Assembly (NCBI GenBank): GCA_963662465.1 | Contig: OY759599.1 | Location: 786,946 to 810,945, forward strand | DNA: 24,000 bases | Reading direction: 5' to 3' | From: Desulfatiglandales bacterium | Lineage (GTDB): Bacteria; Desulfobacterota; DSM-4660; Desulfatiglandales; Desulfatiglandaceae | Part shown: positions 4,368 through 24,000 of the stretch, piece after piece | Layout: each line of letters begins with the position of its first letter | Numbering within the stretch: the first letter of the stretch is position 1 | Made by a program: the position numbers and the translations under genes | The notes under the pieces: model-generated | What the model was told of the DNA's origin: nothing | Databases searched by the model: none | What the model saw: only the letters and a program-made list of their open reading frames with translations

Positions 4368-4685
4368 ATGGAAAATCCCAGAACGCGAAGTGCCCGAACG
4401 GTTTTGCGAGAATGTTTCTGGGGAGATTATCAATTAACCGCCGAAGAACTGCTCCACAGGCTGGATAAAAATGATGTTGGATTTGACCGTTTCGTGTTTT
4501 CCAAGATTGTGGAAAACAGCGATTATCCTTCTCGGCATATTCGTGTACTGTTTCATCCGGACAAATGGCAAAAACTGCTGGATCGTTACATGAAAGCAGG
4601 CGGAAATTCAAAAAGACTTCGCCTCGTGGCAGCCAACATGACGGGAGACTACGATCTGGCAAAGGAATATGCATGGGGAATTTAG
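4368..4685 (+). CDS. Short protein upstream of and overlapping the AbiEii-type toxin; candidate cognate antitoxin/partner
   Basis: The ATG at 4368 is preceded by AAGGGAGGG with 6-nt spacing. 105 aa. Its 3' end overlaps the downstream ATG (4673) by 13 nt, consistent with translational coupling. It begins '...RECFWGDYQLTAEELLHRL...', similar to short proteins I recall upstream of AbiEii-like genes. The family assignment is not verifiable here. Confidence 0.55.
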   Translation: MENPRTRSARTVLRECFWGDYQLTAEELLHRLDKNDVGFDRFVFSKIVENSDYPSRHIRVLFHPDKWQKLLDRYMKAGGNSKRLRLVAANMTGDYDLAKEYAWGI

Positions 4686-5314: not shown

Positions 5315-5437
5315 CGGGTGAGCGGCTCAGCATCCATTCTCTTGACCGCCCCGACTTGCCAGGTGATTGATCACAACCGTTTTGAACCCATTTTTTTTGC
5401 GTTGGTTCGCTTTAAGCCAATTTAAAGGAGCTCGATT

Positions 5438-6437: not shown

Positions 6438-7532
6438 CTACCTGAAATACTGCTTCAATTTCTCAAGATCGTTTCCCACTTCGGCCAGGGCCAGCATCAA
6501 CAACAGACGCGCTTTGGTTCCCATGAGGTCTCCGGCCAAAATGGCGCCCTTTTCCGCCAGCATGCCGCCGCCTCCCTTGTCGCCGTAGGCCGGTTCCACC
6601 GAGCCGTAATAAACCCGGGTGGATATAATCACCGGAATGTTTTTTGAAAGGGCGTACAGAATGGCGTCACAGGTATCCGCATTGACATTGCCCGCGCCCA
6701 GGGCGTCAATGACCAGGCCTTTGGCCCCTTTATCCACGGCGTAACGGATGAGATCCCCATGGTCCCCGGCGAAGGTACTCAGGAACGGTACAGGGGGAAG
6801 CGTTGCGGGAAGGGGCAATTTTATTCCGTGAACCCTGTTGTTGAATCGCGTGACCTTGCCGTTATACACGTAGCCCAGATACCCCTTTTCACCGGATTGA
6901 AAGGTCTGCACATTGGTGGTCTGGGTTTTTCTCACCGCTCTTGCCCCATTGATGTAGGAATTGAGGGTTACGGTAACGCCCATTCCCTGCCCCTCCTTTG
7001 ACGAAGCCTGCACAACGGCGTTCAGGATATTGCCGGGCCCGTCCGAACAGGGGGCGGAGGCATCTTTCATGGCCCCGGTAAACACCACCGGCTTGTCGCT
7101 GTGAACGGTCAATGACAGGAAGTACGCCCCTTCGGCCATGGTGTCCGTTCCATGGGTGATCACCACGCCGGCGATATCGGGTCTTTTGATGATGTCGTTC
7201 ACTTTTCTGCTGAGTTTCAGCCAGATCTCCGGTGTCATCTGTGAGCTGTCAATGTTCATGAAATTCAAAACACCGATGTTGGCAATCTTGTCTAAACCGG
7301 GTACGGCGTTTACCAGTTCATCTCCGGTAAGTGTCGGGACAGACTTGCCGGACTTGGGATCCTTCTTTTCAGCGATGGTTCCGCCGGTGGTGACGATGGC
7401 CACATTCGGCAGTTTCGGATCGGTGACGTGGATCTTGAGATCCGAAGATTCTGCTGCCCCTGAGAAATGTGGAAAAAAGGACGATAACAAGAGTACGATG
7501 ATGAATGTGGAAAAAAGTCTTACGGGCTTCAT
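6438..7532 (-). CDS. ansB: Periplasmic/secreted type II L-asparaginase
   Basis: 364 aa. N-terminal signal peptide 'MKPVRLFSTFIIVLLLSSFFPHFSGAAES'. The catalytic motifs 'VTTGGTIAEKK' (nucleophile Thr) and 'ITHGTDTMAEGAYF' are both present. GGAGAA RBS lies 6 nt upstream of the ATG. Confidence 0.9.
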   Translation of the reverse strand: MKPVRLFSTFIIVLLLSSFFPHFSGAAESSDLKIHVTDPKLPNVAIVTTGGTIAEKKDPKSGKSVPTLTGDELVNAVPGLDKIANIGVLNFMNIDSSQMTPEIWLKLSRKVNDIIKRPDIAGVVITHGTDTMAEGAYFLSLTVHSDKPVVFTGAMKDASAPCSDGPGNILNAVVQASSKEGQGMGVTVTLNSYINGARAVRKTQTTNVQTFQSGEKGYLGYVYNGKVTRFNNRVHGIKLPLPATLPPVPFLSTFAGDHGDLIRYAVDKGAKGLVIDALGAGNVNADTCDAILYALSKNIPVIISTRVYYGSVEPAYGDKGGGGMLAEKGAILAGDLMGTKARLLLMLALAEVGNDLEKLKQYFR

Positions 7533-8278: not shown

Positions 8279-9376
8279 TCAATCACTATCCGCAAGTTCC
8301 TTAGCAACCGCTTTGATGGTTTCCTCAATTTCCAGAAATGCATCCACCACATCCGGGTCGAAATGAGTGCCGCGCCCTTCGCTGATAATGGCCACGGCCT
8401 TTTCATGGGTGAACGGGGGTTTATAAACCCGTTTGCAGATGAGGGCGTCATACACGTCCGCCACCGCCATGATCCGCCCGGAAAGGGGAATTTCCTCTCC
8501 TTTCAACCCTTGTGGATACCCGGAACCGTCCCATTTTTCCTGGTGGGTACGGGCGATGTCCCTGGCGTGGGAGAGAAAGGAGGGCCGGATTTCCGCATCA
8601 AACAATTCCTCCGCCTTCAGAAGGGCCTGGTATCCCAACTCACAGTGGGTCTTCATGGTGGCGAATTCTTCATCGGTGAGCTTGCCCGGCTTGTGCAAAA
8701 CGGCATCGGGAACACCCACCTTGCCGATGTCGTGCAATGGCGCGGACTTGTAGAGCAGCTCCACTGTCTTTTTGTCCAGAACCTGCCCATGCTTTGGATG
8801 GTCCGCCATTTTTTGGGCCAGAGCCTGCACGTAACGCTGGGTTCGCAGGATATGCCCGCCGGTTTCATTGTCCCGGGTCTCCGCAAGGGATGCAAGGCTG
8901 TGAATGGTGATATCCTGGGTGACCGCCAGGTCCCGGGTACGCTCCGCCACTTTGATTTCCAGAATTTCGTTCTGCATCTCCAGTTCACGGCCGGCCAGAA
9001 CCAGGGAGAGGTGGGTCTTCACCCGGGCCTGCACCTCGGTAATTTCAAAGGGTTTGGTGATGTAATCGACGGCGCCCATCTGAAACCCCCTGGTCTTGTT
9101 TTCGATTTCCGTCAGCGCCGTCAGAAAGATGATGGGGATTTTGGCATAGCGTTCATCTGCTTTTAGCGTTTGGCAGACTTCATAGCCGTCCATCTCCGGC
9201 ATCATGATATCCAGCAGAATCAAATCCGGCGGTTCTTCCGCCACGGTCTCAACGGCTTCCCGGCCGTCCATGGCCACCGAGACATCATAGAGTTCGCCCA
9301 GGGCATCCACCAGAATATCCACATTGGCTTCCGTATCGTCCACCACCAGCACGGTGCAATCCGACAATTCTTTCAT
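8279..9376 (-). CDS. Response regulator: REC + intact HD-GYP domain (RpfG-like c-di-GMP phosphodiesterase)
   Basis: 365 aa. REC with 'LILLDIMMPEMDG' and 'ITKPF'. HD-GYP motifs 'APLHDIGKVGVPDAVLHKPGKLTDEE' and 'HQEKWDGSGYPQGL' are all intact. Confidence 0.9.
   Translation of the reverse strand: MKELSDCTVLVVDDTEANVDILVDALGELYDVSVAMDGREAVETVAEEPPDLILLDIMMPEMDGYEVCQTLKADERYAKIPIIFLTALTEIENKTRGFQMGAVDYITKPFEITEVQARVKTHLSLVLAGRELEMQNEILEIKVAERTRDLAVTQDITIHSLASLAETRDNETGGHILRTQRYVQALAQKMADHPKHGQVLDKKTVELLYKSAPLHDIGKVGVPDAVLHKPGKLTDEEFATMKTHCELGYQALLKAEELFDAEIRPSFLSHARDIARTHQEKWDGSGYPQGLKGEEIPLSGRIMAVADVYDALICKRVYKPPFTHEKAVAIISEGRGTHFDPDVVDAFLEIEETIKAVAKELADSD
8992..9376 (-). repeat. REC-domain coding segment duplicated at 10227-10611
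   Basis: The first ~128 aa of the two response regulators are near-identical (MKELSDCTVLVVDDTEANVDILVDALGELYDVSVAMDG... to ...ARVKTHL). DNA identity is roughly 85% by eye. Confidence 0.85.
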
Positions 9377-9383
9377 TGAACTT

Positions 9384-9440: not shown

Positions 9441-9450
9441 GCCGGAACCA

Positions 9451-10611
9451 TCAGGCAGAGGCAAAAACCTGAATGGTTTCCTCGCGAAACTCCGTTTTAG
9501 AGGAGTTATGAAGGATTTCAAAAAGAAACGGGTTGATTTTGGTACCCGCCTCTATCAGCCGTATGCCATTGCTCGTGAAGACATCCGCGGCAATCACCAT
9601 CCCAACGGTCAGGTCTTTTGGATAAAGTTTTCTGACAGCCATGTGGGCAGGTTCCGGTTCGCTCTCAACAATCCGGGAAAACATTTCCACCAGTTTGGGG
9701 CCGTACTCTTTTTCACCGGTTTTCAGCTCGGCCATTGCCGCGGATGGGGTTTTTCCGCTGTAGGTCAACTTCTCATACTCCAGAACCAGCTTTAGAATCC
9801 GACTTCCAATGTGAATCATGCGCTGTGCCTGATCATCCCCCTGGAACCCGGTTTCTTTTTGGAGTTCCTGCTGGCGTGCGATGATCTCTGCCACCTCTGT
9901 TAACCTTGGGATTTTGCGAATCAGTTCATACCCTATCTGAGGGTGCCGATTGTAGGTTTCCTTCTCCTCCACCAAAACCTTCTCTCCCCGGAAAATTTTC
10001 TCGATGGTTTCAGGCGGTACGATAACACAACCGATCTGGCTCAACATGGCGGCCATTCGAATCTGCCAGAAGTCCGTTAGTTTGAAGGCTGCCATCACCT
10101 TGCTGACATGGCGTTTCAGCCGGGATGTTCGGCTGAATGCCGTGGGATTGGCAACGGAAAGAATTTCCGTGAGAACCTCGATGGCGCCCCCCAGCGTTTT
10201 TACCACCAGATCGCGAAGTTCAAGCTCCGCCAGGCGCAGTTTCAGGTGGGTTTTTACACGGGCGTTGACTTCCGCAATTTCAAAGGGCTTGGTGATATAA
10301 TCCACCGCTCCTAACTGGAAACCCTTGGTCTTGTTGCTAATTTCCGTTAGAGCTGTCAGAAAAATGATGGGGATGTTGGCGTAGCGTTCATTGCCCTTTA
10401 ATCTTTGGCACACCTCATACCCATCCATTTCGGGCATCATGATGTCCAATAAAATCAGGTCCGGTGGTTCTTCCGCCACGGCTTCAAGGGCCGCCACGCC
10501 ATCCATGGCCACCGACACATCATACAGCTCCCCCAGTGCATCCACCAGGATGTCCACATTGGCTTCCGTATCGTCCACCACGAGTACGGTGCAATCCGAT
10601 AGTTCCTTCAT
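9451..10611 (-). CDS. Response regulator: REC + degenerate (probably catalytically dead) HD-GYP-like domain
   Basis: The REC is near-identical to that of 8279-9376. The start is taken at ATG 10611 (MKELSDC, AGGTGA RBS with 5-nt spacing) by homology with the paralogue; the track's GTG at 10620 is possible. The output domain aligns to HD-GYP, but 'LHDIGK' is 'MLSQIGC' and 'HHExxDGSGYP' is 'RQQELQKETGFQGDD'. Confidence 0.8.
   Translation of the reverse strand: MKELSDCTVLVVDDTEANVDILVDALGELYDVSVAMDGVAALEAVAEEPPDLILLDIMMPEMDGYEVCQRLKGNERYANIPIIFLTALTEISNKTKGFQLGAVDYITKPFEIAEVNARVKTHLKLRLAELELRDLVVKTLGGAIEVLTEILSVANPTAFSRTSRLKRHVSKVMAAFKLTDFWQIRMAAMLSQIGCVIVPPETIEKIFRGEKVLVEEKETYNRHPQIGYELIRKIPRLTEVAEIIARQQELQKETGFQGDDQAQRMIHIGSRILKLVLEYEKLTYSGKTPSAAMAELKTGEKEYGPKLVEMFSRIVESEPEPAHMAVRKLYPKDLTVGMVIAADVFTSNGIRLIEAGTKINPFLFEILHNSSKTEFREETIQVFASA
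10227..10611 (-). repeat. REC-domain coding segment duplicated at 8992-9376
   Basis: See 8992-9376. The duplication also extends upstream into the RBS and kinase-tail relic (9384-9440 versus 10618-10675). Confidence 0.85.
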
Positions 10612-10620
10612 TAGACTCAC

Positions 10621-12960
10621 CTATCCTTTCAGTTTGTTTTGCAGGTCTTCCAGAAGGGGTAAAGCCTCCTTGAATTTGTATTTATTGATCAACCGCTCCA
10701 GATCGGCCATTTCAATGCTCACGGCCGCCGGCCAGGGAGCCTTCTTCAACTCCGCCATGGCTTCCTTGCAGGGTTTCGGTTTTCGAGTTTTTAAATGGGG
10801 GATCATTTCTTCCAGTGCGGCCAAAAAAATTTTCGGATCAGCTTCTTCCGCACCAGTTTTGACGATTTCAACCTGTTTCGGTTCATCCCCCAGGATTCCC
10901 AGAGCCTCTACAACATCTCTTAGGACACCGCCAAAATTGGAAATCTTCTCTTCATAGGTTTCCCGCTCTCCCTGTTTGATGGCGGACTCCAAAGCCGCAC
11001 CGGCGTCCTGAAGGGGGCCCGCCCCCACGTTACCGGCCACCCCTTTGATGCTGTGGGCCAGACGTTCCGCCTCATCGGCCTTTTCCGATTGCAACAGGCC
11101 CCTTATTTCCTCATCCGTCTTGGCGTAATCGTCGCGAAGTTTCATAAGGATGTTGCGATAGAGTTTCTCATTACCCCCCACGCGCATAAGCCCTTCTTCC
11201 ACATTAATTCCCTCAATGGATTGGGGAAGTTGATCCTTGGGTGGTGCAGGAGGGGCTGATGGGGCAGGTGCTGTTTCGAGGGGTTCTACCCTATCCGATT
11301 TGGGTTCAAATCCCCTCACCCCCGGCTGTATCCACTGGCCCAGGCAGGAGAAAAGCTGTTTTACGTCAATGGGTTTGGCCACATGGTCGTTCATGCCGGC
11401 TTCAATTGCTTTTTCCTTGTCACCGGCCATGGCGTTGGCGGTCATGGCGATGATGGGCATGTCGTCAAAACGCTTATCTTTGCGGATTTCGAGGGAGGCC
11501 GTGTATCCATCCATCACCGGCATCTGGATGTCCATGAGCACGGCCTGGTAATTGCCCGTCTGCACCGCATCCACCGCCTGCCGGCCATCTCCCACTGTGG
11601 TGACCTTAAGACCCGCCCCCCCCAGAATCTCCTGGGCCACCTGTTGATTGATCTCGTTGTCTTCCACCAGGAGCACCTGAGCGCCCTTGATATGATCCAC
11701 CCCTTCGGGGTCAACACCCGGTCCCCGCCGTTTTTGTCCGGATCCGCTGCCTTTACCAAAGGCGGCCATGGCGGCATCCAACAGCATTGAAGGGGCTACC
11801 GGTTTGATCAGAAACCCATCCAGACCGATCCGGTCCGCCTGGTTCATGATCTCTTCACGACCGTAGGCGGTCACCAGAATGATTTTGGGTATCTTGTTGA
11901 GGTCAGGATGATTCTTTATTTTTTCGGAAGCCGTTAGCCCATCCATACCCGGCATCTGCCAATCCATGAAGATGAGATCAAAGGGATTGTCCGGGTCCGC
12001 CTTTTCCACCTCCGCCAGTCCTTTTAGTCCATCCGTGGCCAGGGTCACCTCAAAAGACATGGAGGTAAGCATATCTTCCAGTATTTCACGGCTGGTATCG
12101 TTATCGTCCACCACCAGCACCTTGAGGTTTTTGAGATCGGGGTCAGGCTGTAGTATTCTCTCTTTTTGAGCCTCACCAATACCTAAAACCGCCGTAAAGA
12201 TAAATTCACTGCCCACCCCCGGTTCGCTCTCCACCCAGATCTCGCCGCCCATCATCTCCACCAGCCGCTTGCTGATGGTCAACCCCAGGCCGGTTCCACC
12301 GTATTTTCGGGTGGTGGAGGCATCCGCCTGACTGAAGGCCTGAAAGAGTTTTCCCCGCTGTTCTTCGGTAAGCCCGATGCCCGTATCCCGAACCCCGAAC
12401 CGCACCTTTACATGATCTGAGGGCACCTGATCATCCATCGTCTCCATCACTGCGGCTGAAATGACAATTTCACCGGTTTCCGTAAACTTCACGGCATTAT
12501 TGGATAGATTCACCAGGACCTGGCTCAGGCGCAGGGGGTCTCCCTGAAGGTCATTGGGCAGTTCCGGATCCACTTTCATCAGCAGCTCCAACCCTTTTTC
12601 CTGGGACTTGACACTCACCAGAGTGGACACACTGTCCAGGGTCTTGTCCAGGCTGAAATCGATGATCTCCATGTCCATCTTACCGGCCTCGATCTTGCTG
12701 AAATCGAGGATGTCGTTGATGATGCCGAGAAGCGCCTGAGCACTGGAGTGGATTTTAACCAGATAATCGACCTGCTTGGGATCCAGATCGGTCTTTAGCG
12801 CCAAGTGACTCATGCCCATAATGGCGTTCATGGGGGTACGGATCTCGTGGCTCATGTTGGCCAGGAAATCACTCTTGGCCTTGGTGGCTTCCTCGGCTTT
12901 CTGCTTTTCCTCATCCAGGTCCTGCATCATGTTGAGCATGGCGCGCCTGGCTTCGGCCAA
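10621..12960 (-). repeat. Paralogous ~2.35-kb segment (HK1 catalytic core + REC-REC-Hpt), direct repeat of 20676-23030
   Basis: The two segments align end to end at the DNA level, including a 32-nt identical run CCCATCATCTCCACCAGCCGCTTGCTGATGGT at 12248-12279 and 22318-22349. Confidence 0.85.
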
Positions 12961-13494
12961 CTCCTCAAGCTGCTCCTGAAGCGCCTCGGAAGCCTCTTCG
13001 GCGGAATCCCTGGCCGCCTCGATCTCCTCGGTGGAATTTTTCAAGGCTTCATTTTTCTCCTGCATCTCACGCAGCAATTCCCCCCTGGACGCTTTGGACA
13101 GATTTTTCCGCACGGTTTCGAGGAAATGCTCCGAAGGGCTGAAGCCTGGATTGGGCAAATATTTGAAAACAAGAACCTTTGATGGCGAACCTTCCCCGTT
13201 TCCCTCATGAATAACATCGAAAAAGGGCGCACCGTGGGATGCAATGGCTGTGTTTCCACCGTATGAGAATCTTATGGTCAAACCGCTCTGCCCATTACGG
13301 TCTTCAAGACCGATGGCAACATCCACATCAAAGGCATTACGAACGTCGTTTCTCAAAAGCTCGGAAAAAGCCGCCACCAGCCTTGTGGCATCCATGTCAT
13401 CATATTCCAGTGTTTCGGCCAGCCTGAAGATTTTGCGCCTGGCATCAGAAAACGTTTCGGCATTTTTTACGGAAATATTACCCAATTCAATCAT
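10621..13494 (-). CDS. Soluble hybrid histidine kinase HK1: novel N-terminal domain, coiled coil, HisKA, HATPase, REC, REC, Hpt (RpfC/BarA-like)
   Basis: H-box '[11 protein letters not shown]', N-box '[12 protein letters not shown]', G1 'RDTGIGL', G2 'GGTGLGL'. REC1 '[13 protein letters not shown]', REC2 '[13 protein letters not shown]', Hpt '[12 protein letters not shown]'. No TM segment. The preferred start, ATG 13494, overlaps the rsbX stop as ATGA, with GAGG ~10 nt upstream. The track's GTG at 13518 would overlap rsbX by 28 nt. Confidence 0.9.
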
Positions 13495-14078
13495 AGCCCA
13501 TACCTCAATACAATACACGATGCATCATCGCTGTCCTTACCCAACCGGTCCATCAGATCCGCCGCTATTTTCCGCGCTGAACCCTTCAGAAGGTCCGGGT
13601 AGAAAATCGGATCAAAGTGTTCCTTTATCCCGTCGGAGTTCAAAATCAGGATATCCCCGGAAGACACTTTTGCCCGTTGTTTTTTGGGCGTGGGCATTCT
13701 GTACCCGAGAACACCGTCCCGGGAAACAAAGGTGACGGGGGACGGTCCGTAAAGCCGCGCCGTAATATTTCCCACGCCCACAAATTCCATTTCGCCGTTC
13801 ACCAGGTTCAAATGGCAGAGGGCGGCAACGGCCCCTCGGGTCCCCTTCAAACAGGCATGCAATCCGTTCATCAATTCCTCCAGATCGGAAAGATGGCTTT
13901 CCTCAAGATAGCGCTCCCCGATTTCCGCCACCTGGTGGGCATTTTTGCCATGGCCCAGCACATCCATGAGGGCTAAAAAGCATTGGTCATCGGATACCCG
14001 GATGACCCCCGCATCGCCGCATTCGTCCTCCGGACCGGTGAGTGAGCGCTTCAACAAATGGGTGTCAACCTTAAGCAT
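13491..14078 (-). CDS. rsbX: RsbX-like PP2C/SpoIIE-family serine phosphatase
   Basis: Aligns by eye with B. subtilis RsbX ('CGDAGVI...[11 protein letters not shown]', '[11 protein letters not shown]', 'FVGVGNI', 'ILILNSDGI'). The preferred start, ATG 14078 (GGAG with 5-nt spacing), gives 195 aa and an 8-nt overlap with rsbT. The track start at 14138 would overlap rsbT by 68 nt. Confidence 0.8.
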
Positions 14079-14493
14079 TCCGTCTCCATTTTCTGGCAAC
14101 AATCCGCGTGCCGGCGCCTGGTTTCGATTGAATGTCAAATTCGTCCATAATCCTTTTTATGCTGGAGAGCCCCAGACCCAGACCGTGGCCCTTGCTGACC
14201 CCTTCTTCCATGGCCCCTTGGATGTCCTCGATGCCGGGTCCCTGGTCCTCCACGGTAAACTCAAAGCCCACACGGTCCTCATCTTTAACAGCCCTGAGCC
14301 TGACCCTTCCTTTTTCGGCATACCGAATCACGTTCGTGGAGGCTTCGGACGCGGCCGTGGCGATCAGGTATTGCTGGTTCTCGTCAAATCCCATTTGGGC
14401 GGTGAGGTGCCTGACGGCGTAGACCACCCGGGCATGGTCCGACAACTCAACCAGATCGATGATCCTTTCTTCAATAATGCCGTTATTCTCCAA
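14071..14493 (-). CDS. rsbT: RsbT-like serine/threonine kinase (GHKL, anti-sigma-kinase type) of the stressosome
   Basis: 140 aa with a TTG start and GGGAGA upstream. N-box 'SEASTNVIRYA', G1 'VEDQGPGI', G2 'GHGLGLGLSSIKRIMDEF'. Its position between an RsbS-like and an RsbX-like gene fits. Confidence 0.85.
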   Translation of the reverse strand: MENNGIIEERIIDLVELSDHARVVYAVRHLTAQMGFDENQQYLIATAASEASTNVIRYAEKGRVRLRAVKDEDRVGFEFTVEDQGPGIEDIQGAMEEGVSKGHGLGLGLSSIKRIMDEFDIQSKPGAGTRIVARKWRRNA

Positions 14494-14520: not shown

Positions 14521-14952
14521 TCACGGGATGACGCCTGATTTCGACTCCACGGGCCCAAACCGCTTCAGGGCACGATTCCTTAAAAACGCGAACCCGTCAT
14601 CCATGCTGATGGCCGTCGGAATGTTCCCGAGATCTAGCCCCAGATCCACCGCCGCGGACGCAACACCCGGCTGAAAGCCCACAAACACAATATCGGCGCC
14701 CAGCATGGATACCATTTTTGCGGTATTCGTCAGAACGGTAAAGCTGTAAGCATCAACGATCCGAAGAACGGAAACATCAAACAGGACCCCCTTGGCAGCG
14801 GTTTCGTTTACTTTTCGAAGGACCGCTTTTTGAAGCCCCACGGCGTAATGATCATCCAGTTCCGCATTGACGGGCACCACCAGAAAGCCGCCCACCGTGT
14901 GCATGCCCAATGCGGAAAAATTTTCAACATCTTCCATAGTTATCTTCTCCAT
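14521..14952 (-). CDS. rsbS: RsbS-like single STAS-domain stressosome scaffold protein
   Basis: 143 aa. An ungapped alignment to B. subtilis RsbS runs from 'GVLFDVS' through 'GFQPGVA' ('GVVIDLT...GIQPAVA'). An alternative start at ATG 14937 has the better RBS (GGAGAA). There is a C-terminal extension of ~20 aa. Confidence 0.85.
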   Translation of the reverse strand: MEKITMEDVENFSALGMHTVGGFLVVPVNAELDDHYAVGLQKAVLRKVNETAAKGVLFDVSVLRIVDAYSFTVLTNTAKMVSMLGADIVFVGFQPGVASAAVDLGLDLGNIPTAISMDDGFAFLRNRALKRFGPVESKSGVIP

Positions 14953-14980: not shown

Positions 14981-15790
14981 TTATTTCGTTTGGACCACCT
15001 CCAGCTTCAATATGGCAAATGCATCGGCCAGGGAATCCTGAAGGTTTGAATTGGTGGTCACGTCTCCCAGTTCAATGCCCAGTTGAACCAGGGTCTCGGC
15101 CACGGCGGGGGATATGCCGGAAACAATGCACCGGCACCCCATGAGCCTCGTGGCTTTGGCGATTTTAATAAGATGGTTGGCCACCGCCGTGTCAACCGTG
15201 GCCACCCCCGCAATATCCAGAATAATGACTTTGGCCAGGGTTTCCGTTATCTTCTTCAACATGGTGTGCATCATCTGTTGAGCACGCAGGGAATCCACCA
15301 CCCCCACCACGGGAAGAATGATGACCCGGTCCCACAGCTTTATGACCGGGGTCGATATCTCCATGATGGTGCGGCTCTGTTCCTGAAGTTTCCGCTCCTG
15401 TTGAACCCGGTTGGTGATATCCAGGATGTATTCCAGCCCGCCGATGATATTCCCCGCTTTGTCCTTTAAGGCCGCGGCGGTGTATTCAATGGGGATCGAC
15501 CTCCCACCGATTTTTGCCTCATTGCGAACGGTACACGTTTCAGTGCCTCCCATAACTTGTTTCATTCGGCATTCCGGTGTCCGGCAGTGGAGCGAATCGA
15601 AAACCTCGTAACAATGACTCCCTTTGATTTCCTCCCAACTTTTTCCGGAGAGCTTTAAACCCGCATCATTCATGAAAATGAGATTCAGATCGAGATCCAC
15701 CGCCATAATCGGCGTGGGAAGCTGATCCAGAATCTGGATTGCGAGATCGTTGTTGATCTGCACACTGCTGCCGTTAATTTTTTGGTTCAT
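14981..15790 (-). CDS. rsbR: RsbR-like stressosome sensor: N-terminal PAS + C-terminal STAS
   Basis: 269 aa with a GGAGG RBS. The STAS part 'VIILDIAGVATVDTAVANHLIKIAKATRLMGCRCIVSGISPAVAETLVQLGIEL' aligns with RsbRA and conserves both phospho-Thr positions (VDT, AET). The N-terminal ~130 aa is a PAS fold ending in 'LEYILDITNR'. Confidence 0.85.
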   Translation of the reverse strand: MNQKINGSSVQINNDLAIQILDQLPTPIMAVDLDLNLIFMNDAGLKLSGKSWEEIKGSHCYEVFDSLHCRTPECRMKQVMGGTETCTVRNEAKIGGRSIPIEYTAAALKDKAGNIIGGLEYILDITNRVQQERKLQEQSRTIMEISTPVIKLWDRVIILPVVGVVDSLRAQQMMHTMLKKITETLAKVIILDIAGVATVDTAVANHLIKIAKATRLMGCRCIVSGISPAVAETLVQLGIELGDVTTNSNLQDSLADAFAILKLEVVQTK

Positions 15791-15825
15791 GGATTGCCTC
15801 CAGTTTTTGGGTGTTGAATATACGG

Positions 15826-18800
15826 TTATTGAACAATCTCGTATTTTTCTTCCCGGCCGAGTTTTTCCAGAAGTTGGTTGACTTCTTCCTTCAGACCGAT
15901 CATTTTTATCTCCCTGCCCACCACCAGTCGGTTGAACTGTTCCAGCTCTTCCAGCCTCTCCTTCAGTTCCTGTTCGGCCTTCTTCAGTTCCGAGATATCG
16001 ATAAAGCTTTCCAGAAGATGTGTTTTCCCACTCAGTTTCACCCGCGTCACGGTTTTGAGTATCGGTATTTCCTGACCCGCGGCGGTAAGAAGAACCCGTT
16101 CGGCATTTTCAATTTCCTGCTCACTGTCCAGTACGGGACAGTCATTCACTGCCTTGGGACAAACAAACTCATGACAAATGTGGCCGATGATTTCCGTGCC
16201 GGGCAACCCGATCATTTGGGCCGCCAAGGGATTTACGTCAACGATGGTACGGTTTTCGGGATCAATGATGATCACACCGGTGTTGATGGCATTTAAAATC
16301 GTCTGGACACGCTGTTCGCTCTCTTTAACCGCCTTTTCCGCCTGCTTCTTTTCCGTTTCGTCTTTTGAAAAAACCGCAATAACCCAGCGATTCTCCAATT
16401 GCGTCAAAACAATTGAAAGCATAACATTCAGAATACGCCCGTCTTTTGTTTTGTGGAGGCCTTCGGTCTCAACGTGGGAATGGGTCTGAAGGACCTCCAT
16501 CAAGCCGGTAAATTTTTCTTCATTGAATTCCATATCGATCTGGGGCACATGCATGCTCATGAGCTCCTCCCGGGTGTAACCCAGTGAACTGCACGCCGCT
16601 TCATTGGCATAGATAAACATACCGGTCTCGGGATCCACCCAGAAGATCGTGAGAGCCGCTTTGTCCACCGTGGTCTGAGTGAACCGCAGGCGATCTTCCG
16701 ATTGTTTGCGGTCGCTAATATCCGTGACCATGGCAAAAGCGCCGATCCTTTCATTGTTTTCGTCATAGAGCGGCGAAACATTGTAAAGACAATTGACCTG
16801 GCTACCGTCGGGCCTGGAAAGGGCGATTTCATAGGCACTGGTAATGCCCTGTTTTCGAAGCTCAATCTGTTCCAGAAATATTTTCTTGTTCTCTTCGTCC
16901 ACAAAATCAAAGATGGTTTTGCCGATCACCTCATCTTTCTCCCTCCCCATAATATGGCACATGGCGGGGTTCTGATCGACAATTTCCTGACTGGCATTGA
17001 CCAATTGGAAACCTTCAGCGGCTGTTTCCAGAATCGTTTTGAGCTTTTTCTCACTTTCTTTCATGGCATCTTCCGCAATTTTGCGGTCAGTAAAGTCGCG
17101 CAGGCTTTCGATGGCGCCTACCGGTTTCCCGCTGGTGTCATAAAGAATGGCCGCAATACCGGAAAGGTAAGTGCCACCATCGCCCATGTGGGGATGGAAA
17201 GATTCCGACACAAGACAATTCCCTTCCTTCTTTACGCTCAGGTATTTTTTCCCCAGTTCCTCATCCCATTGTTTTACCAAATCCACCAGAATCGGGCGGC
17301 GGTCACCATAGAATGGCAAGGCGTATTCATAATCCCCTTTACCCACGATGTTTCCCTTCTTTACGCCGGTAAGTTTCTCCATGGCGCGATTCCAAAACTG
17401 CACTTTGCCCTCAACATCGATTGCAAGAATGGGATCCGGCAGAAAGTCAATGAGATCGGCCATGCGTTGTTCAGAATCTTTTATGGCCTCCTCAGCCTTC
17501 TTGCGCTCGGTGATGTCTCGCACCGTGCCAACCGCAAACCATTCTTCATCTACCTGGAAGGATGACAGCGTTACCTCAACCGGGAATTCATCGCCCTTTC
17601 GGTTGCGGGCGTTAATCTCGGTGGTGGTTCCCAGGACAGGGCCTTCCCCATTTTCGGCAAAATGTTTCAGCCCGGCGTAGATTTTCTCATGGTACACTTC
17701 GGGCGCGGCCATCTGGTGAAAATCCATCCCCATGGCCTCGGCTTCGGTGTAGCCGAAAAGCTTCTCCGCCGCGGGATTCCAGAACAGCACTTTCCCCTGT
17801 CCATCGATCATCACCAGTGCATCTTCCGCAGCTTGGCTCATGGCCTTGATTTTGCGCTCGCTTCTGATATGATCCAGTTCCGCCAGTTTCCGGCTTGTAA
17901 TATCCAGTATTAATCCGTTATAAATGAGATCCCCTTCAGCGTTACGACTGGGAGAGGCATTGAGGCGGATCCATTTGACAGCGCCTTCTTTGGAAATTAT
18001 ACGGCCCACATGATTCATGTCCGCTTCAGCCAAGAGGTCCGTTTGGACCTCTTTCTTGACCCTCTCAAAATCCTCCGGATGCCATGGAAGGCGCTCTTTC
18101 CCCCTCATCACCTGCTCCACCGGCATTCCGAAAAAGGCTTCGGCCTTTGGACTCAGGTACAGGTATTCGGGCCTGCCGTCGGCGTCAAACCGGATCTGAA
18201 TGATGGCCCCTGGTGTGGTTGCGGCAATGGTCTGGAAACGCTCCTCGGCACGCTTGCGTTGGACCATCTCCCTGGCCATGCGCCGGTTCCAGATGATGAT
18301 GATGGTCAAAATCAATCCGATAACCATGGCAACGGCAATCCCCATTTTGATCAAGAAAGCCCAGTCGGTGCGTTGGGCGAAGCGCACGTTAATCCAGCGG
18401 TTGGCGATATTTCGCTTCTCTTCTTCAGGTATGGAATTGAGGGCCTTGTCAAGGATGGTTGCCAGTTGTGGCCAGTCCTTGCGCACGCCAAAACGCAGGC
18501 TTGAACTGTAACCTGTCGAGGCGGCCACCTTGAGATCCGCAAGACCCAATTTGCTAATGGCATATACAATCGAAGCCGAGTTATCCACATAGGCCGCGGC
18601 TTGTCCTTCGGCTACCGCCTTAAGGCCCTGTTCGATATCGTCTACCAATACCAGCTTCATTTCAGGGAAATCCTGTTCCAGCATCTCCTGCACAAAATAC
18701 CCTTTGACCACCGCCACTTGGGCGTCTTTCAAACTTTTCATTTCAGCAATGAACGGTGCGTCTTTCCGGGTAACGGCAACGGTCTGAAAATCCAGATAGG

Positions 18801-20592
18801 GGCGTGTGAACTGAAGAAATTCCGCGCGCTTCGGCGATTTGGCGACACAAGGCAGAACATCCAGTTCCCCGGCTTTCACGGCATCCATGACGCCATGCCA
18901 ACTCAAACTCTTCACCGGCGTCATCTCCACATTCAGTTTCTCACTCATGAGGAACACGTAGCTGGAGGAAATCCCTTCGTACTCCCCTCCGGCACTGACG
19001 CCCTCAAAAGGCATGAAATTGGGATCCACGCCCAGGCGGATATGAGGATGTTTTTTGAGCCACTCCTTTTCCTCGAAGGTCAGCACCATGGGGCGGGCTT
19101 TTCCGGAATACTGGCGCAAGTCGGGATTTGAAACCCAGCGCCCTTCGACATCCCGTATTTCCTTTTCCGTAATTTCGTCAAAACCACTGTTTATGGATTT
19201 AAGTCGGAACCCATCTTCCTTTAAAACAGCGGCAAAAAGATTTCGAATCGGGGTGGTTTCCCTGGAAACCCGAATCTCCCCCTGCAATCCCATGTCTTCA
19301 ATAGCCCGCTGCAATGTAATCCCAACATCATATATGGCGATGACATCACCGTCCTGCAGGCCGGTAAGGAGTTCTGGGTATCCCTCATAAGGGATGCGAA
19401 CAATTTCCGGATACTGCTCACGAAGCTGACTCTCCTCCCCCGACCCGGCAATCACACCGACGCGAGCGCCGGAGAGTTCAGCAAGCATCATGGGTTTCCT
19501 GCTTGTTTTAAAGGCCAGGCTGTCCTGCACGTCAAAGATGGGGACTGAGAAGGAAAGAAACGTTTCGCGTTTCGGGGTTTTGTACAGACCCGAGTGAAAA
19601 TCGGCTCTTCCATCTTTGACCATCTGAAGTGTTTCTTCCCAGTCTCCGAAAACAAACTCGATTTTACGAAAGTTCTTTGAGGACCACAAACGCCAGAGAT
19701 CCACCAGGATTCCCGCAGCCTTGCCCGAAGGGGTCAGCATGGTAAAGGGCGGGTAGTACCGATCGCAGGCAATGGTTAATACCCCTTTGGGTTTGATTAT
19801 TTTTGAACCGATCCAGCGCCGTTCGATCTGCACCTTTTCTTCCGGGGAGATCTTGTCAAAACATGACTTTATGACAGGCGGCAAAACCGTATCGCCTTTT
19901 TTTACCGCGGCCTGAAAGGCATTGGTATAAAGAGGCTTGTCCGAAAAATAACGAAAGTTTGAAAGGAGTTGTATTTTCTTGAGGAAGTAAAGGCCGACGG
20001 GGGTATCTATGACGAATACCCGGATTTCCCCCTTTTTAACGGCCTTGAACAGATCTCCATTGTTGACATATTCGGCGAGAGCGGCCCCGGGCAGATTAGT
20101 GCGCAGATAGTCCACTGCAAAATCTCCCTTGATGACGCCGATGCGAAACCCCAGCAGATCTTTCAGGGTTTTAATGCCATAAATGTCTTTGTGGAAAAAG
20201 AAATGGGTATCCGCTTTGATGAGGGGGGCAACATAGTCCAGGTAGGTTGCTCTTTGCTCCGAATAGAAACAGCCGCCCTGAACGTCCACTTTCCCCTCTT
20301 TGGTGAGCTTCAGGGTTTCACCAAAAGGCGCCAGGACGAAGTTGATCTTGATACCGCTTTTTTGGGACCACAACTGCCAGAGATCCACCAGCCACCCGTC
20401 AGCGACCCCTTTCGCGTCTCGGAAATAGAACGGGGCAGTGTCCTGTGCCACCGCCACAGTGATTTCTTTGATATCTTGAGAGCCTTCCTTTGCCGCAGCC
20501 ACAATCGGCATGCCTAAAACAGTCAGAAAAAATCCCAGACAAAACAACCAGGACCCGAAAACTCCGGCAATGCTCCTTTTAAAACACGGCAT
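15826..20592 (-). CDS. Giant membrane sensor: signal/TM, 3 periplasmic SBP_bac_3-type domains, TM, 6 PAS domains, C-terminal coiled coil; no recognisable output domain
   Basis: 1588 aa from ATG 20592 (AGGGG RBS); the track's TTG at 20616 is 8 codons upstream. Each solute-binding domain ends in an RW(I/V) junction. The TM helix is 'AFLIKMGIAVAMVIGLILTIIIIW'. PAS linkers are 'DITSRKLAE', 'DITERKKAEE', 'DFTDRKIAED', 'DISDRKQSED' and 'DISELKKAEQE'. It ends '...FNRLVVGREIKMIGLKEEVNQLLEKLGREEKYEIVQ'. Confidence 0.85.
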   Translation of the reverse strand: MPCFKRSIAGVFGSWLFCLGFFLTVLGMPIVAAAKEGSQDIKEITVAVAQDTAPFYFRDAKGVADGWLVDLWQLWSQKSGIKINFVLAPFGETLKLTKEGKVDVQGGCFYSEQRATYLDYVAPLIKADTHFFFHKDIYGIKTLKDLLGFRIGVIKGDFAVDYLRTNLPGAALAEYVNNGDLFKAVKKGEIRVFVIDTPVGLYFLKKIQLLSNFRYFSDKPLYTNAFQAAVKKGDTVLPPVIKSCFDKISPEEKVQIERRWIGSKIIKPKGVLTIACDRYYPPFTMLTPSGKAAGILVDLWRLWSSKNFRKIEFVFGDWEETLQMVKDGRADFHSGLYKTPKRETFLSFSVPIFDVQDSLAFKTSRKPMMLAELSGARVGVIAGSGEESQLREQYPEIVRIPYEGYPELLTGLQDGDVIAIYDVGITLQRAIEDMGLQGEIRVSRETTPIRNLFAAVLKEDGFRLKSINSGFDEITEKEIRDVEGRWVSNPDLRQYSGKARPMVLTFEEKEWLKKHPHIRLGVDPNFMPFEGVSAGGEYEGISSSYVFLMSEKLNVEMTPVKSLSWHGVMDAVKAGELDVLPCVAKSPKRAEFLQFTRPYLDFQTVAVTRKDAPFIAEMKSLKDAQVAVVKGYFVQEMLEQDFPEMKLVLVDDIEQGLKAVAEGQAAAYVDNSASIVYAISKLGLADLKVAASTGYSSSLRFGVRKDWPQLATILDKALNSIPEEEKRNIANRWINVRFAQRTDWAFLIKMGIAVAMVIGLILTIIIIWNRRMAREMVQRKRAEERFQTIAATTPGAIIQIRFDADGRPEYLYLSPKAEAFFGMPVEQVMRGKERLPWHPEDFERVKKEVQTDLLAEADMNHVGRIISKEGAVKWIRLNASPSRNAEGDLIYNGLILDITSRKLAELDHIRSERKIKAMSQAAEDALVMIDGQGKVLFWNPAAEKLFGYTEAEAMGMDFHQMAAPEVYHEKIYAGLKHFAENGEGPVLGTTTEINARNRKGDEFPVEVTLSSFQVDEEWFAVGTVRDITERKKAEEAIKDSEQRMADLIDFLPDPILAIDVEGKVQFWNRAMEKLTGVKKGNIVGKGDYEYALPFYGDRRPILVDLVKQWDEELGKKYLSVKKEGNCLVSESFHPHMGDGGTYLSGIAAILYDTSGKPVGAIESLRDFTDRKIAEDAMKESEKKLKTILETAAEGFQLVNASQEIVDQNPAMCHIMGREKDEVIGKTIFDFVDEENKKIFLEQIELRKQGITSAYEIALSRPDGSQVNCLYNVSPLYDENNERIGAFAMVTDISDRKQSEDRLRFTQTTVDKAALTIFWVDPETGMFIYANEAACSSLGYTREELMSMHVPQIDMEFNEEKFTGLMEVLQTHSHVETEGLHKTKDGRILNVMLSIVLTQLENRWVIAVFSKDETEKKQAEKAVKESEQRVQTILNAINTGVIIIDPENRTIVDVNPLAAQMIGLPGTEIIGHICHEFVCPKAVNDCPVLDSEQEIENAERVLLTAAGQEIPILKTVTRVKLSGKTHLLESFIDISELKKAEQELKERLEELEQFNRLVVGREIKMIGLKEEVNQLLEKLGREEKYEIVQ

Positions 20593-20675: not shown

Positions 20676-23030
20676 TTATTCCTTTAATTTTTTCTGAAGA
20701 CCTTCCACCAGGGGCAGAGCCTCTTTAAATTTGTATTTGTTGATGAACCTTTCCAGATCTGCCATCTCCACGCCTACCGCCGCCGGCCAGGGCACCTTTT
20801 TGATCTCCGCCATGGCCTCCTTGCACGGTTTCGGCTTACGGGTTTTCAGATGGGGAATCAATTCTTCCAGGGCGGCTGCAAGCGCTTCAGGATCGACTTC
20901 CCCCCCAGCCTTTTGGGCCATATCGGCCGGTTTGGGTTCCTCGCCCAAAACCCCGAGCGCTGCCACAACATCTTTCAACACACCTCCGAAAGCGGAAATC
21001 CGTTCATCATCGGTATCGGAAAGCCCTGCTTTGATGGCGGACTCCAGCGCCGCTGCCGCCGCCTGTAACGGCCCCGCCCCCACGTTGCCGGCCACCCCTT
21101 TGATGCTGTGGGCCAGACGTTCCGCTGCTTCCCCTTTTTCGGCCTTCAGCAGATCTTTGAGTTCCTGTTCGGTATCGGCATAGTCATCCCGAAGCTTTAT
21201 GAGCAGTTTGCGGTAAAGCTTTTTATTTCCGCCCACGCGCATAACCCCTTCCTTGATATTGATGCCGTTTACGACATCCGGAAGATGATCTTCAGCCACG
21301 GCGGCGGAAGGTTCAACAGCCGGTAAAGGGATATCAGTCCTGGGTTCGAATCCCCGCACACCCGGTTTGATCCACTGGGCCAGGCAGGAGAACAGCTGGT
21401 TCAGATCGATGGGTTTGGCTACGTGGTCGTTCATGCCGGCATCAACCGCCTTTTCACGGTCTCCCGCCATGGCGTTGGCCGTCATGGCGATGATGGGAAT
21501 GGGGATTGCGGATTGCGGATTGCGGATTTTCTCTTCCCCTTCCCATTTGCGGATTTCGCCGGTAGCCGTGTACCCGTCCATGACCGGCATCTGAATATCC
21601 ATTAAGACCGCATGGTAGTTGTTGTCCGCCTGCACCGCTTCCAAAGCTTGCTTTCCGTTACTAACGGTAGTGACCCTGAGGCCTGACCCACCAAGAATTT
21701 CCTCGGCCACCTGCTGGTTGATTTCGTTGTCTTCCGCCAGCAGCACGTGGGCGCCTCTGATTTTTTCCGCTCCTTCCGGTTCACTCGAATGTTTCCTGCC
21801 GCGTCTTTTGGAAGCATCCAGTTTGCCAAAGGCGGCCATGGTGGCGTCCAGCAGCGTCGAAGGGGTGAGCGGTTTGATGAGGAAACCGTCCAGTCCCATT
21901 TGATCGGCCCGGGTCATGATCTCTTCCCGGCCAAAGGCGGTCACCATGATGATTTTGGGAATCTTGGCAAGGCCTGCATGGTTCCTGATTTTTTCAGACA
22001 CCGTAAACCCGTCCATTCCGGGCATTTTCCAATCCATAAGCACCAGTTCAAAGGGATCTTCCTTATCTGCTTTTTCCAGTTCCCTGAGCCCTTCTTCCCC
22101 ACCGGGGACAAGGGTCGCTCTAAAGGACATGGCAGCCAGCATTCCTTCCAGAATGTCGCGGCTGGTTTGGTTGTCGTCCACCACCAGCACTTTGAGGTTC
22201 CTGAGATCCGGGTCGGGCACGAGAGCGGGCTTTTCATCCCCTTTTCCAAGGCCGAAAAGAGCGGTGAAGATGAATTCGCTGCCCACTCCGGGTTCGCTTT
22301 CCACCCAGATCTCTCCCCCCATCATCTCCACCAGCCGCTTGCTGATGGTGAGCCCCAGACCGGTTCCGCCGTATTTCCGGGTGGTGGAGGCATCGGCCTG
22401 GCTGAAGGCCTGAAACAGTTTGCCCCGCTGTTCCTCGGTAAGTCCTATCCCCGTATCCCGGACGCCGAACCGCACCCTTACCTGATCTGGGGGCATCTGA
22501 TCCTTGGTTTTCTCCTCCAGGGTGGCGGAGATGACGATCTCTCCTTTTTCCGTGAATTTGACGGCATTGTTACTGAGGTTCACCAGCACCTGGCCCAGGC
22601 GAAGGGGGTCCCCAAGAAGGTTATTGGGGAGTTTCCGGTCCACCTTCAACAGCAGTTGCAGTTCCTTTTCCTGGGACTTCACACCCACCAGGTTGGCCAC
22701 ATTGTCCAGGGCATCATCCAGCTTGAAATTGATGGTTTCCATGTCCATCTTGCCCGCTTCGATCTTGCTGAAATCTAAGATGTCGTTGATGATGCCCAAG
22801 AGCGCCTTGGCGCTGGACTGTATTTTCACCAGGTAGTCTTGCTGCTTGGGGTTCAACTCCGTTTTTAGGGCCAGGTGGCTCATGCCGATGACGGCGTTCA
22901 TGGGGGTCCGGATCTCGTGGCTCATGTTGGCCAGAAAATCGCTTTTGGCCTTGGTGGCCTCTTCGGCTTTCTGTTTCTCCTCGTCCAGGTCCTGCATCAT
23001 GTTCAGCATGGCACGCCTCGCATCCGCCAA
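20676..23030 (-). repeat. Paralogous ~2.35-kb segment (HK2 catalytic core + REC-REC-Hpt), direct repeat of 10621-12960
   Basis: See 10621-12960. Homology ends at the codons for 'LA(E/D)[43 protein letters not shown]'. The N-terminal sensor parts are unrelated. Confidence 0.85.
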
Positions 23031-23468
23031 CTTTTCAATCTGAGCCTGCATGGAATCCTCGGACTCCCTGCTTTTGGCGAAAGCGGCTTCCAACTGCTCG
23101 GCCATACTGTTAAAGGCCTCTGAAAAATCCCCCATGAAATCGACCTTGTGACTGAAATCCCCTTTGGCGATCTGCTGAGTGGTCCAGGTCAGGTGGCGCA
23201 GACTTCCCTGGAGGTTTTTCAGGTTACCCATCAGGGCGCTGTTGCTTCGAGGCGGTTGGTATTCGACATCGCCGCCGGACAGTGCCTGGGCCAGATCGGC
23301 AGTGGCGGCGTAATCCGTGAGGAATTTGTTGATGTAGCCAACCGCCTGCCGAATCTCGTTGTCAGGAAAATCGTCGGGCAAAAGGATAGGGCCGGGCTTC
23401 TTACCTTTCATGATCAGATAGAAGACCTCACTGATCTTGTCAATGATCTCTTCCTTGACTTCCAGCAT
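20676..23468 (-). CDS. Soluble hybrid histidine kinase HK2: unknown N-domain + HAMP-like segment, coiled coil, HisKA, HATPase, REC, REC, Hpt; paralogue of HK1
   Basis: It has the same catalytic, REC and Hpt motifs as HK1, at roughly 80% aa identity over the C-terminal ~780 aa by eye. The N-terminus is distinct, with '[32 protein letters not shown]' (HAMP-like). The preferred start, ATG 23468, lies 4 nt after the V4R stop with GAGGG upstream. The track start at 23513 would overlap V4R by 41 nt. Confidence 0.9.
21503..21528. repeat. Tandem heptanucleotide repeat (GGATTGC)x3 + GGATT inside the HK2 coding region (REC2 loop)
   Basis: Read directly: ggattgc ggattgc ggattgc ggatt. On the coding strand this is AATCC(GCAATCC)x3, encoding ...IRNPQSAIP.... 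It is absent from the HK1 paralogue. Confidence 0.9.
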
Positions 23469-23472: not shown

Positions 23473-24000
23473 TTATGCCCTCGGCTTGATGTCAAAACGG
23501 CAGACGCGGTCACCGGTGCACCAGCAGTCGATCTCCTTCACATCAAACTCTTTGCCCGTAAATTCCAGGAACAGGCCGTTGATAAACCCCTCATCGTAAG
23601 TACAGATGCTTTCATCAGTGATGGGCAGCCCGGAACAATCCAGATCCTCCGCCACCGTCAGGATAAAGTGCATGTTCTCCATGTCGGCTTTTTCAACGCG
23701 CAGAATACCGATGCTCAAATCGGACAACAGCCTTTGTACCTCTTCAACAAATGCATTGAAGTCAGACTTCTGCGTCACCAGATTCTTGAAAAACTGGCGG
23801 CCCGCGGACTGCCCGGCTTCGTAATAAATGCGGTCGGCGGCCTCGGGGCCATAATGCTTGATCAGTACGTCGCGCAGGGTAAATTGCATGAGGCGGTAGA
23901 CCGCCACGCTCATGGTGTTCCCCAGGTTGGGCCGACCTTCGGCGATATCGCCCAGCATACTCCAATCAAATTGCAGTTCATCCCGCTCTTCCTTAAACAT
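23473..24000 (-). CDS. Stand-alone V4R (4-vinyl-reductase / XylR-DmpR-type ligand-binding) domain protein
   Basis: 175 aa, with an ATG exactly at the window edge, so the true start cannot be confirmed. The V4R-type C-terminal pattern is '[39 protein letters not shown]'. The size is typical of single-domain V4R proteins. Confidence 0.7.

Follow-up and report, generated by a model that had tools for sequence, protein, structure and literature searches.

A Kinase-Less Membrane Sensor with a Conserved C-Terminal Tail Encoded Upstream of a Stressosome-Kinase Gene Cluster

The 24,000-nucleotide stretch analyzed here (the window; contig OY759599.1 of a Desulfatiglandales bacterium) carries on its minus strand the gene of a 1588-residue membrane sensor that ends without an output domain, directly upstream of a homologue of the stressosome gene rsbR. 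A preliminary description of the sequence had pointed out this arrangement, which our analysis confirms, and had interpreted the sensor as a dedicated extracytoplasmic arm of a stressosome. That interpretation is partly supported, and the stressosome angle is weaker than was proposed. The sensor terminates in a conserved tail that is widespread, unannotated and linked to histidine kinases, and we consider this module the more interesting result.

The sensor gene and its neighborhood

The open reading frame (ORF) of the sensor is intact (Table 1). It starts with an ATG at position 20592, which AAGGGG precedes by 8 nt. An alternative TTG start would extend the ORF to position 20616, but the ATG is preferred because the orthologues begin with MPCF or MPGF, in agreement with it. 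Pfam, TIGR00229 and a hydropathy scan bear out the architecture described earlier, with a signal/transmembrane segment, three tandem SBP_bac_3 domains, a second transmembrane helix (TM2) and six PAS domains. Two hydrophobic segments were found by the hydropathy scan, residues 8–34 and 744–768, and no others. The three conserved flytrap junctions could also be located: an ExxxIxxRW motif closes each SBP_bac_3 domain, at residues 252–263, 478–489 and 725–736. The NCBIfam EvgS model aligns to residues 467–780, spanning the second and third SBP_bac_3 domains and TM2. From the last PAS domain to the C-terminus there are 50 residues.

The absence of an output domain was likewise borne out. In the 1588-residue sensor, Pfam (E ≤ 0.01) detected no HisKA, HATPase_c, GGDEF, EAL, HD, MCPsignal or STAS domain, and NCBIfam returned PAS and solute-binding matches with no output domain. 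A search with the whole sensor found about 33 homologues that have no Pfam output domain, are 29–100% identical to it and share its architecture and tail. Where the SBP-PAS array recurs in more distant homologues, the protein terminates in a hybrid kinase, a PP2C or GGDEF domain or an adenylate cyclase, in line with the earlier statement that such input arrays normally end in a kinase or cyclase. We asked whether the gene derives from a histidine kinase by decay or truncation, as a pseudogene or through recent loss of the core. In favor of this, a kinase usually closes proteins that carry this input array, and the tail helix superposes on Jα and DHp helix 1 of YF1. However, the 4.8-kb ORF is intact, the tail has no sequence relation to DHp, and no kinase remnants lie downstream because rsbR begins 35 nt past the sensor stop codon. 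The same terminal module closes the roughly 33 homologues, down to 29% identity, and thousands of other proteins. This conservation rules out a truncated gene, an origin that we regard as extremely improbable.

The sixth PAS domain (PAS6) carries a conserved motif, C-H-x-F-V-C-P-x5-C-P, which reads C-H-E-F-V-C-P-x5-C-P here and is also kept in the unrelated tail proteins P0149, P0150 and P0167. The PAS domain of RsbR has a Cys cluster of its own, H-C-Y-E-V-F-x4-C-x4-C. The two clusters suggest metal, iron–sulfur or redox sensing.

The sensor gene belongs to a 10-gene minus-strand cluster that runs from position 24000 down to 8279 with gaps of −8 to 83 nt. From these short co-directional gaps we predict an operon in which the sensor array heads a stressosome-kinase unit; a scan for terminator-like sites found none in the intergenic gap on either side of the sensor gene. 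The spacing between the sensor and the next gene, and the GGAGG ribosome-binding site in it, agree with the preliminary description, as does the identity of that gene as a PAS-STAS RsbR homologue. Its STAS half matches the RsbR of the Vibrio vulnificus stressosome (7O0I_B, E 1e-45). The four genes downstream of the sensor have the order and domain content of RsbR-RsbS-RsbT-RsbX (RSTX), and are a candidate for assembly into a large RsbR/RsbS/RsbT complex. The RsbX orthologues are 195 residues long. Missing from the preliminary description were the V4R protein and the second hybrid kinase, which lie immediately upstream of the sensor on the same strand.

Table 1. Features of the window, in order of descending position
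Feature	Positions	Strand	Description
V4R-domain protein	23473..24000	minus	175 aa; Pfam V4R E 5e-15; partner of V-class kinase
Upstream V-class hybrid histidine kinase	20676..23468	minus	85-aa head, soluble HAMP and core; Pfam, alignment A2
Giant sensor gene	15826..20592	minus	Intact ORF, 1588 aa; kinase-less membrane sensor; stop codon 15826-15828
N-terminal signal/transmembrane segment	20473..20592	minus	aa 1-40, hydrophobic core aa 8-34; hydropathy scan
Three tandem periplasmic SBP_bac_3 (Venus-flytrap) domains	18385..20472	minus	aa 41-263, 273-489, 515-736; Pfam E 1.8e-58
Second transmembrane helix (TM2)	18289..18363	minus	aa 744-768; hydropathy scan
Six cytoplasmic PAS domains	15979..18240	minus	aa ~785-1538; Pfam PAS and TIGR00229, six stretches
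PAS6	15988..16320	minus	Conserved Cys motif
Conserved C-terminal tail	15829..15987	minus	aa 1536-1588; ~44-residue helix, invariant Arg at core heptad position, then G-x3-KYEIVQ
Sensor-rsbR gap	15791..15825	minus	Exactly 35 nt; GGAGG 6 nt before rsbR ATG
RsbR homologue	14981..15790	minus	PAS-STAS, 269 aa; Pfam PAS_4 and STAS
PAS domain of RsbR	15386..15790	minus	Cys cluster
RsbS homologue	14521..14952	minus	Single STAS, 143 aa; Listeria/Bacillus RsbS matches in PDB, E 4e-19
RsbT homologue	14071..14493	minus	GHKL Ser/Thr kinase, 140 aa; Pfam HATPase_c_2 E 3e-15; SpoIIAB-type PDB matches
RsbX-type PP2C phosphatase	13491..14078	minus	195 aa from orthologue-matching Met; overlaps end of rsbT; Pfam SpoIIE
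S-class hybrid histidine kinase	10621..13494	minus	RsbT-like head (aa ~1-132), coiled coil, HisKA, HATPase_c, two REC, Hpt
RsbT-like head of S-class kinase	13099..13494	minus
Response regulator, degenerate HD-GYP	9451..10620	minus	Pfam REC and HD_5; SQ replaces HD, GYP absent
Response regulator, canonical HD-GYP	8279..9376	minus	Pfam REC, HD_5 and HD; HD and GYP motifs present
L-asparaginase	6438..7532	minus
AbiEii toxin homologue	4565..5314	plus
BrxL Lon-like protease	1735..3783	plus
PglZ	95..1735	plus

The V-class and S-class kinases have cores that are 70% identical (BLASTP, 581/825), and the difference between them is confined to their N-terminal heads. The V4R and stressosome input branches therefore share nearly one transmitter. 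The head of the S-class kinase is a degenerate GHKL domain related to RsbT (hhalign probability 94.5%, E 7.6e-8) that has lost the ATP-lid region, and this RsbT-like head was seen only after rsbRSTX modules. It is probably the element that couples stressosome output to an effector where RsbU_N is absent, because the same head precedes PP2C in the rsbRSTX locus of Desulfovibrio sp. JC022 (L098, 12214-13482).

In RsbS, the position of the canonical phospho-Ser, which we take to correspond to B. subtilis Ser59 and Listeria Ser56, is occupied by Ala (VDAYSF/FDAFSF) in the window and in L002, L008, L094, L095 and L096. The other clades of the 11-sequence alignment have DSS (L098), DSY (L034) or DTF (L023 and L040) there. 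The canonical switch, phosphorylation of RsbS by RsbT, may not operate in this locus, and activation may therefore need a noncanonical trigger. RsbS proteins of the window clade have a Ser two residues past the Ala, and a shifted phosphorylation site is possible.

The cluster ends in two tandem response regulators (8279-10620) whose receiver domains are nearly identical. The canonical HD-GYP regulator is probably a cyclic di-GMP (c-di-GMP) phosphodiesterase. The pairing of an active with a degenerate regulator recalls that of H-NOX networks.

The conserved C-terminal tail

The preliminary description had seen a C-terminal coiled coil after the last PAS domain. A continuous helix is indeed predicted, but its strong conservation marks it as a module and not a generic coil. 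A stretch of about 50 residues with the consensus LEELERFxRLxxGRExKMIxLKEEINxLLxxxGxxxKY[KE]IV terminates all of the roughly 33 homologues, and its alignment (A1) contains 12 invariant columns, which include surface-exposed charged residues and the terminal KY[KE]IV. The tail had no meaningful match in Pfam (E ≤ 10), NCBIfam or a PDB profile search, and a full-text literature search with tail peptide strings retrieved no relevant paper. A profile of the tail was scored against 1.84 billion representative proteins and matched 14,225 clusters at E ≤ 1e-3, of which 2,946 pass E ≤ 1e-10. With few exceptions, the 150 best matches carry it at the extreme C-terminus.

In 72 representative tail proteins, Pfam identified input domains only, namely PAS (66), SBP_bac_3 (17), PocR (16), HAMP (8), dCache (7) and GAF (5), and the 25 most frequent families did not include HisKA, HATPase, GGDEF, EAL, HD, STAS or HTH. 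Proteins that join REC to the tail exist too. In P0214, the head and HAMP of a V-class kinase are followed by the tail in place of the kinase core. The tail thus occupies the output slot of the domain grammar, since tail proteins carry inputs only and homologues of the array end in enzymes.

AlphaFold2 was run on PAS6 plus tail with 22 aligned sequences (mean predicted local distance difference test score 87.5). The model shows a PAS fold, predicted at high confidence, and then a single continuous helix of 44 residues (about residues 1534–1577), with the final 11 residues poorly ordered. In alignment A1 the helix can be read in a heptad register with L16, V23, M30, V37 and L44 at position a and F19, L33 and L40 at position d; by our reading the invariant R26, the Arg of the GRE motif, also occupies a core d position. 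The best Foldseek matches to PAS6 plus tail are YF1, in which the helix lies over Jα and DHp helix 1, and the short LOV proteins PF5-LOV, PpSB1-LOV and SBW25-LOV, which lack an output (E ~1e-7, TM-score 0.6–0.64).

These proteins resemble the end of the sensor in having a PAS core and a long C-terminal Jα, and the short LOV proteins specifically also in having no effector domain. They are, however, small soluble flavin photoreceptors, whereas here the PAS domain and helix end a 1588-residue membrane protein and the helix has a signature of its own; the Cys motif of PAS6 differs as well. A second resemblance is to the signaling helix, or S-helix, described by Anantharaman, Balaji and Aravind in 2006 (PMC1592074), a parallel coiled-coil type of about 40 residues that directly follows a sensor domain. 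Its ERT signature likewise places an Arg switch residue in a core heptad position (PMC1592074). In contrast, the signature of the tail is [G/N/D]-R-E and not E-R-T, the tail is terminal, and G-x3-KY[KE]IV follows; the comparison is one of features, not of homology. The tail thus resembles the S-helix and the Jα of short LOV proteins without their sequence signatures.

The tail was also considered as a degenerate DHp helix 1 (ELEQF...GRE against ELEQFAYVASHDL / DFLANMSHE). This candidate was rejected on hhalign probabilities of 1–3%, and the structural overlay with YF1 is all that remains of it.

Several side observations concern the tail itself. In six proteins (P0121, P0127, P0133, P0144, P0181 and P0213) the tail helix also occurs internally, where an acidic linker and PocR/PAS come after it, and a second tail ends the protein. 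Tiny putative tail-only ORFs adjoin sensors in L033 (68 aa) and in L035 (two tails in 92 aa). Glu pairs are frequent in the tail, so that its methylation by CheR-like enzymes is conceivable. In P0021 (locus L011) and P0024, which are 44–45% identical to the sensor over 89% of its length, PP2C (SpoIIE) replaces the tail. Beyond P0021, locus L011 contains a hemerythrin gene on the opposite strand and then genes for DUF6272, SiaC and a GAF-HD-GYP protein, an arrangement that looks like a SiaABC-like partner switch likewise ending in an HD-GYP enzyme.

Genes that follow tail sensors

The best 80 loci of a metagenome scan with the tail profile were taken for comparison. Neighbors were labeled from simple ORF calls and single-sequence phmmer seeds, and most loci were retrieved through the tail itself. 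The preliminary description had asked whether orthologues of the sensor are always followed by rsbR. Such a linkage holds for six of the eight close orthologues with readable context (the window, L002, L008, L094, L095 and L096), where rsbRSTX follows across a recurring junction of about 35 nt. It also holds for three tail sensors with unrelated N-termini (L023, L034 and L040), which precede PAS-STAS rsbR-rsbS-rsbT. It does not hold throughout. In L009, L010, L012, L014, L015 and L097, sensors of the same family precede a V4R protein of 175 residues, a hybrid kinase of the V class and a REC-HD-GYP regulator, and about 20 loci other than the window have such a V4R-kinase pair behind a tail sensor. 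Within the best 80 metagenome loci, V4R and kinase come after the tail sensor in 17 and rsbR in 3, a roughly 5-fold difference.

Other tail sensors have neither module. A kinase directly follows 13 tail genes in 13 loci (L014 is counted under V4R too), and in several of the best 80 loci an H-NOX, TorT-like binding protein or CheR comes first and then a kinase. The gene in between encodes H-NOX in L039 (9235-9777) and L069 (3250-3792), a CheR-type methyltransferase in L042, L043 and L045, and CheD in L071; the intervening H-NOX protein also scores weakly for V4R. The adjacent stressosome is therefore only one of several modules paired with tail sensors, and the common denominator of these sensors is a downstream histidine kinase. 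A HisKA kinase was found in the downstream co-directional run at 23 of 28 metagenome loci whose flank measured 3 kb or more, at position 1–2 in 20 of them, compared with 5 of 18 on the upstream side. Two cassettes are present in L014 and in L095, and each kinase unit there has its own tail sensor. This cassette pattern predicts another tail sensor just beyond position 24000 of the window, upstream of the V4R gene.

The original proposal can now be weighed. As a dedicated extracytoplasmic arm of the stressosome, the sensor would bind the N-terminal PAS turret of RsbR through PAS6 or the tail, tether the complex to the membrane and gate the release of RsbT. The conserved rsbR junction with its ribosome-binding site, the rsbR-rsbS-rsbT genes behind sensors with unrelated N-termini, and the Ala at the phospho-Ser position of window-clade RsbS are all consistent with such a role. 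Membrane tethering has a precedent in Prli42 of Listeria, a membrane component associated with the stressosome (PMC6614362, PMC9840623). Unlike the present sensor, however, Prli42 is a short miniprotein without sensory domains, and the two have no homology or architectural similarity.

Against a dedicated arm, sensors of the same family with near-identical tails precede V4R-kinase units, the more common linkage. One case is the pair P0002 (L014, V4R-linked) and P0004 (L095, rsbR-linked), which are identical over residues 1–820 and about 90% identical in the last PAS domain and tail. Their middle PAS domains are swapped, and the pair looks like the result of recombination between paralogous tandem sensors in which a whole adaptor-kinase unit was deleted or exchanged. 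We considered a tail subtype specific to rsbR and rejected it, as the ELEQF/GREIKMI/KYEIV subtype also precedes V4R units in L014, L026, L037 and L046. The only rsbRSTX locus found through its PAS-STAS RsbR, L098 of Desulfovibrio sp. JC022, has a PP2C output and no upstream sensor (n = 1), and a scan of viral contigs gave no further rsbR contexts. RsbR also has its own Cys-rich PAS domain and is far more conserved than the giant sensor: the best 120 of its 898 homologues at E ≤ 1e-10 are 241–312 residues long, typically about 265–270, and 63–96% identical, and none of these 120 is fused to a sensor array. Conversely, no STAS fusion was found among the best 120 sensor homologues. With STAS in neither the sensor nor these homologues, the sensor is not a stressosome component as defined by this domain. 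We therefore consider a dedicated stressosome co-sensor unlikely.

In P0031 a homologous SBP-PAS array is fused to a hybrid kinase core that is 62% identical over 766 residues to the kinase of the present locus, and about 22 residues join its last PAS domain to the H-box. Since near-identical sensors are linked to V4R and to rsbR, no rsbR-specific tail subtype exists, L098 lacks a sensor, RsbR is unfused, P0031 is fused to a kinase and P0214 has the tail in place of the kinase core, we favor the view that the tail sensor is part of the kinase unit. For the tail itself we lean toward the kinase core, rather than RsbR, as the contact partner.

A further possibility is that the tail is a mere dimerization cap. 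The sensor would then signal by hetero-association of PAS domains, or its target would be an unlinked partner or a small molecule, and the neighboring genes would be only loosely related to the sensor. The plain continuous helix of the AlphaFold2 model fits this possibility, as do the structural analogues among the short LOV proteins, which are dimeric PAS plus Jα without an effector. Copies of the helix also occur internally as inter-domain elements, and no shared docking element could be identified among the downstream kinases. However, 12 invariant columns across very distant proteins are more than dimerization needs. The exclusivity of the tail with enzymatic outputs, the polar kinase linkage and the fused sensor-kinase homologue also argue against a simple cap, which we judge improbable, about on a par with the dedicated stressosome arm.

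We propose instead that the gene product is an accessory sensor, anchored in the membrane and without a kinase domain, which forms the sensing half of a split sensor-kinase and whose tail acts in trans on the downstream phosphorelay. To this reading we give an even chance. Several points weigh against it. The kinases that follow tail sensors vary at their N-termini (dCache-HAMP, GAF-PAS, 7TM-PAS, V4R-head and RsbT-like head), and beyond the HisKA core no docking element common to them was found. Compared by hhalign with the DHp alignments of two HisKA subfamilies, the tail showed no homology. The internal copies of the tail helix that are followed by PocR/PAS fit a structural dimerization element as well as an output. 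Signaling genes cluster anyway in these genomes, and part of the kinase linkage could therefore be nonspecific. Gene calls and neighbor labels have the simple basis given above, and because the loci were mostly found through the tail, they are silent on how many kinases go without such a sensor.

Proposed mechanism and related systems

In the mechanism that we propose, ligand binding to the three periplasmic Venus-flytrap domains would be signaled through TM2, and the six PAS domains would contribute inputs of their own. Together these signals would set the conformation of a dimeric C-terminal signaling helix, the tail, which stands where a kinase, cyclase or phosphatase sits in related proteins. 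The tail would then act in trans, presumably by protein contact, on the phosphorelay encoded downstream; the hybrid kinase is its most likely target and RsbR a possible one. This relay would comprise RsbR-RsbS-RsbT-RsbX, the hybrid kinase with its RsbT-like head and the two REC-HD-GYP regulators. Since it ends at this pair, the end effect is probably hydrolysis of c-di-GMP. The stressosome would be one of several interchangeable adaptors between sensor and kinase, the others being V4R, H-NOX, a TorT-like protein, CheR or none.

The input half of the sensor is similar to that of BvgS/EvgS-type sensor kinases, with a signal/transmembrane segment, tandem periplasmic SBP_bac_3 domains, a transmembrane helix and a cytoplasmic PAS region, and many of its homologues are such hybrid kinases. 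In contrast to them, this sensor has three flytraps and six PAS domains, no HisKA, HATPase, REC or Hpt, and ends in the 50-residue tail. It falls outside the BvgS/EvgS kinase family because it has no HisKA or HATPase domain; the kinase here is a separate gene, five genes downstream of the sensor.

The nearest functional analogues are the accessory sensors of H-NOX/HnoK, TorT/TorS and LuxP/LuxQ, in which a separate sensing polypeptide is encoded beside the kinase. In related loci, H-NOX, TorT-like and V4R genes are themselves found between a tail sensor and a kinase. The known accessory sensors are small proteins with a single ligand-binding domain and established contact sites, whereas the present sensor is a large multidomain membrane protein. 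Like them, it is a separate sensing polypeptide, encoded in a co-directional short-gap cluster with a kinase. As an accessory sensor it would bind the kinase directly and regulate its activity.

The downstream genes are best compared with the RSTX module of the Vibrio vulnificus type (PMC9237108, PMC4976288), which likewise has a signaling protein within a few bases and a likely output in c-di-GMP turnover. That two-component or c-di-GMP proteins directly follow an RSTX module has been described before (PMC9237108). The differences are that RsbR here has a Cys-rich PAS domain instead of a globin, the kinase has a degenerate RsbT-like head instead of RsbU_N, and RsbS lacks the canonical Ser. 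In addition, a giant membrane sensor heads the operon here, and no upstream partner sensor is described in PMC9237108 or PMC4976288.

Beyond this locus, the tail may be an undescribed, widespread trans-acting output module that links kinase-less PAS, GAF, HAMP and REC sensors to separate HisKA kinases. We put this forward tentatively, as a generalization somewhat less probable than not. If it is true, the tail defines a large class of split sensor-kinases, and at this locus a Gram-negative stressosome-kinase phosphorelay gains a periplasmic ligand input. A sizeable fraction of bacterial PAS proteins are annotated as sensors without an output, and the way in which such proteins signal has long been a puzzle. 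The tail offers a concrete handle on it, as it marks thousands of output-less sensors that have no enzymatic output and a polar linkage to histidine kinases. The activating inputs of stressosomes are also still largely unknown, and the loci described here pair a periplasmic ligand-binding sensor with a co-operonic RSTX module. That module is exchangeable for a V4R adaptor ahead of a 70% identical kinase core, and the RsbT-like kinase head suggests a route from stressosome output to two-component systems.

The rest of the window holds genes of other kinds. The L-asparaginase gene follows the last response regulator on the same strand after 746 nt, and may be connected with the sensor's amino-acid-type binding domains or stand there by coincidence. 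On the plus strand, between positions 95 and 5314, PglZ and BrxL form the end of a BREX system, and the AbiEii toxin homologue is part of this unrelated defense island. The G+C content falls to 44–46% at positions 4001–6000.

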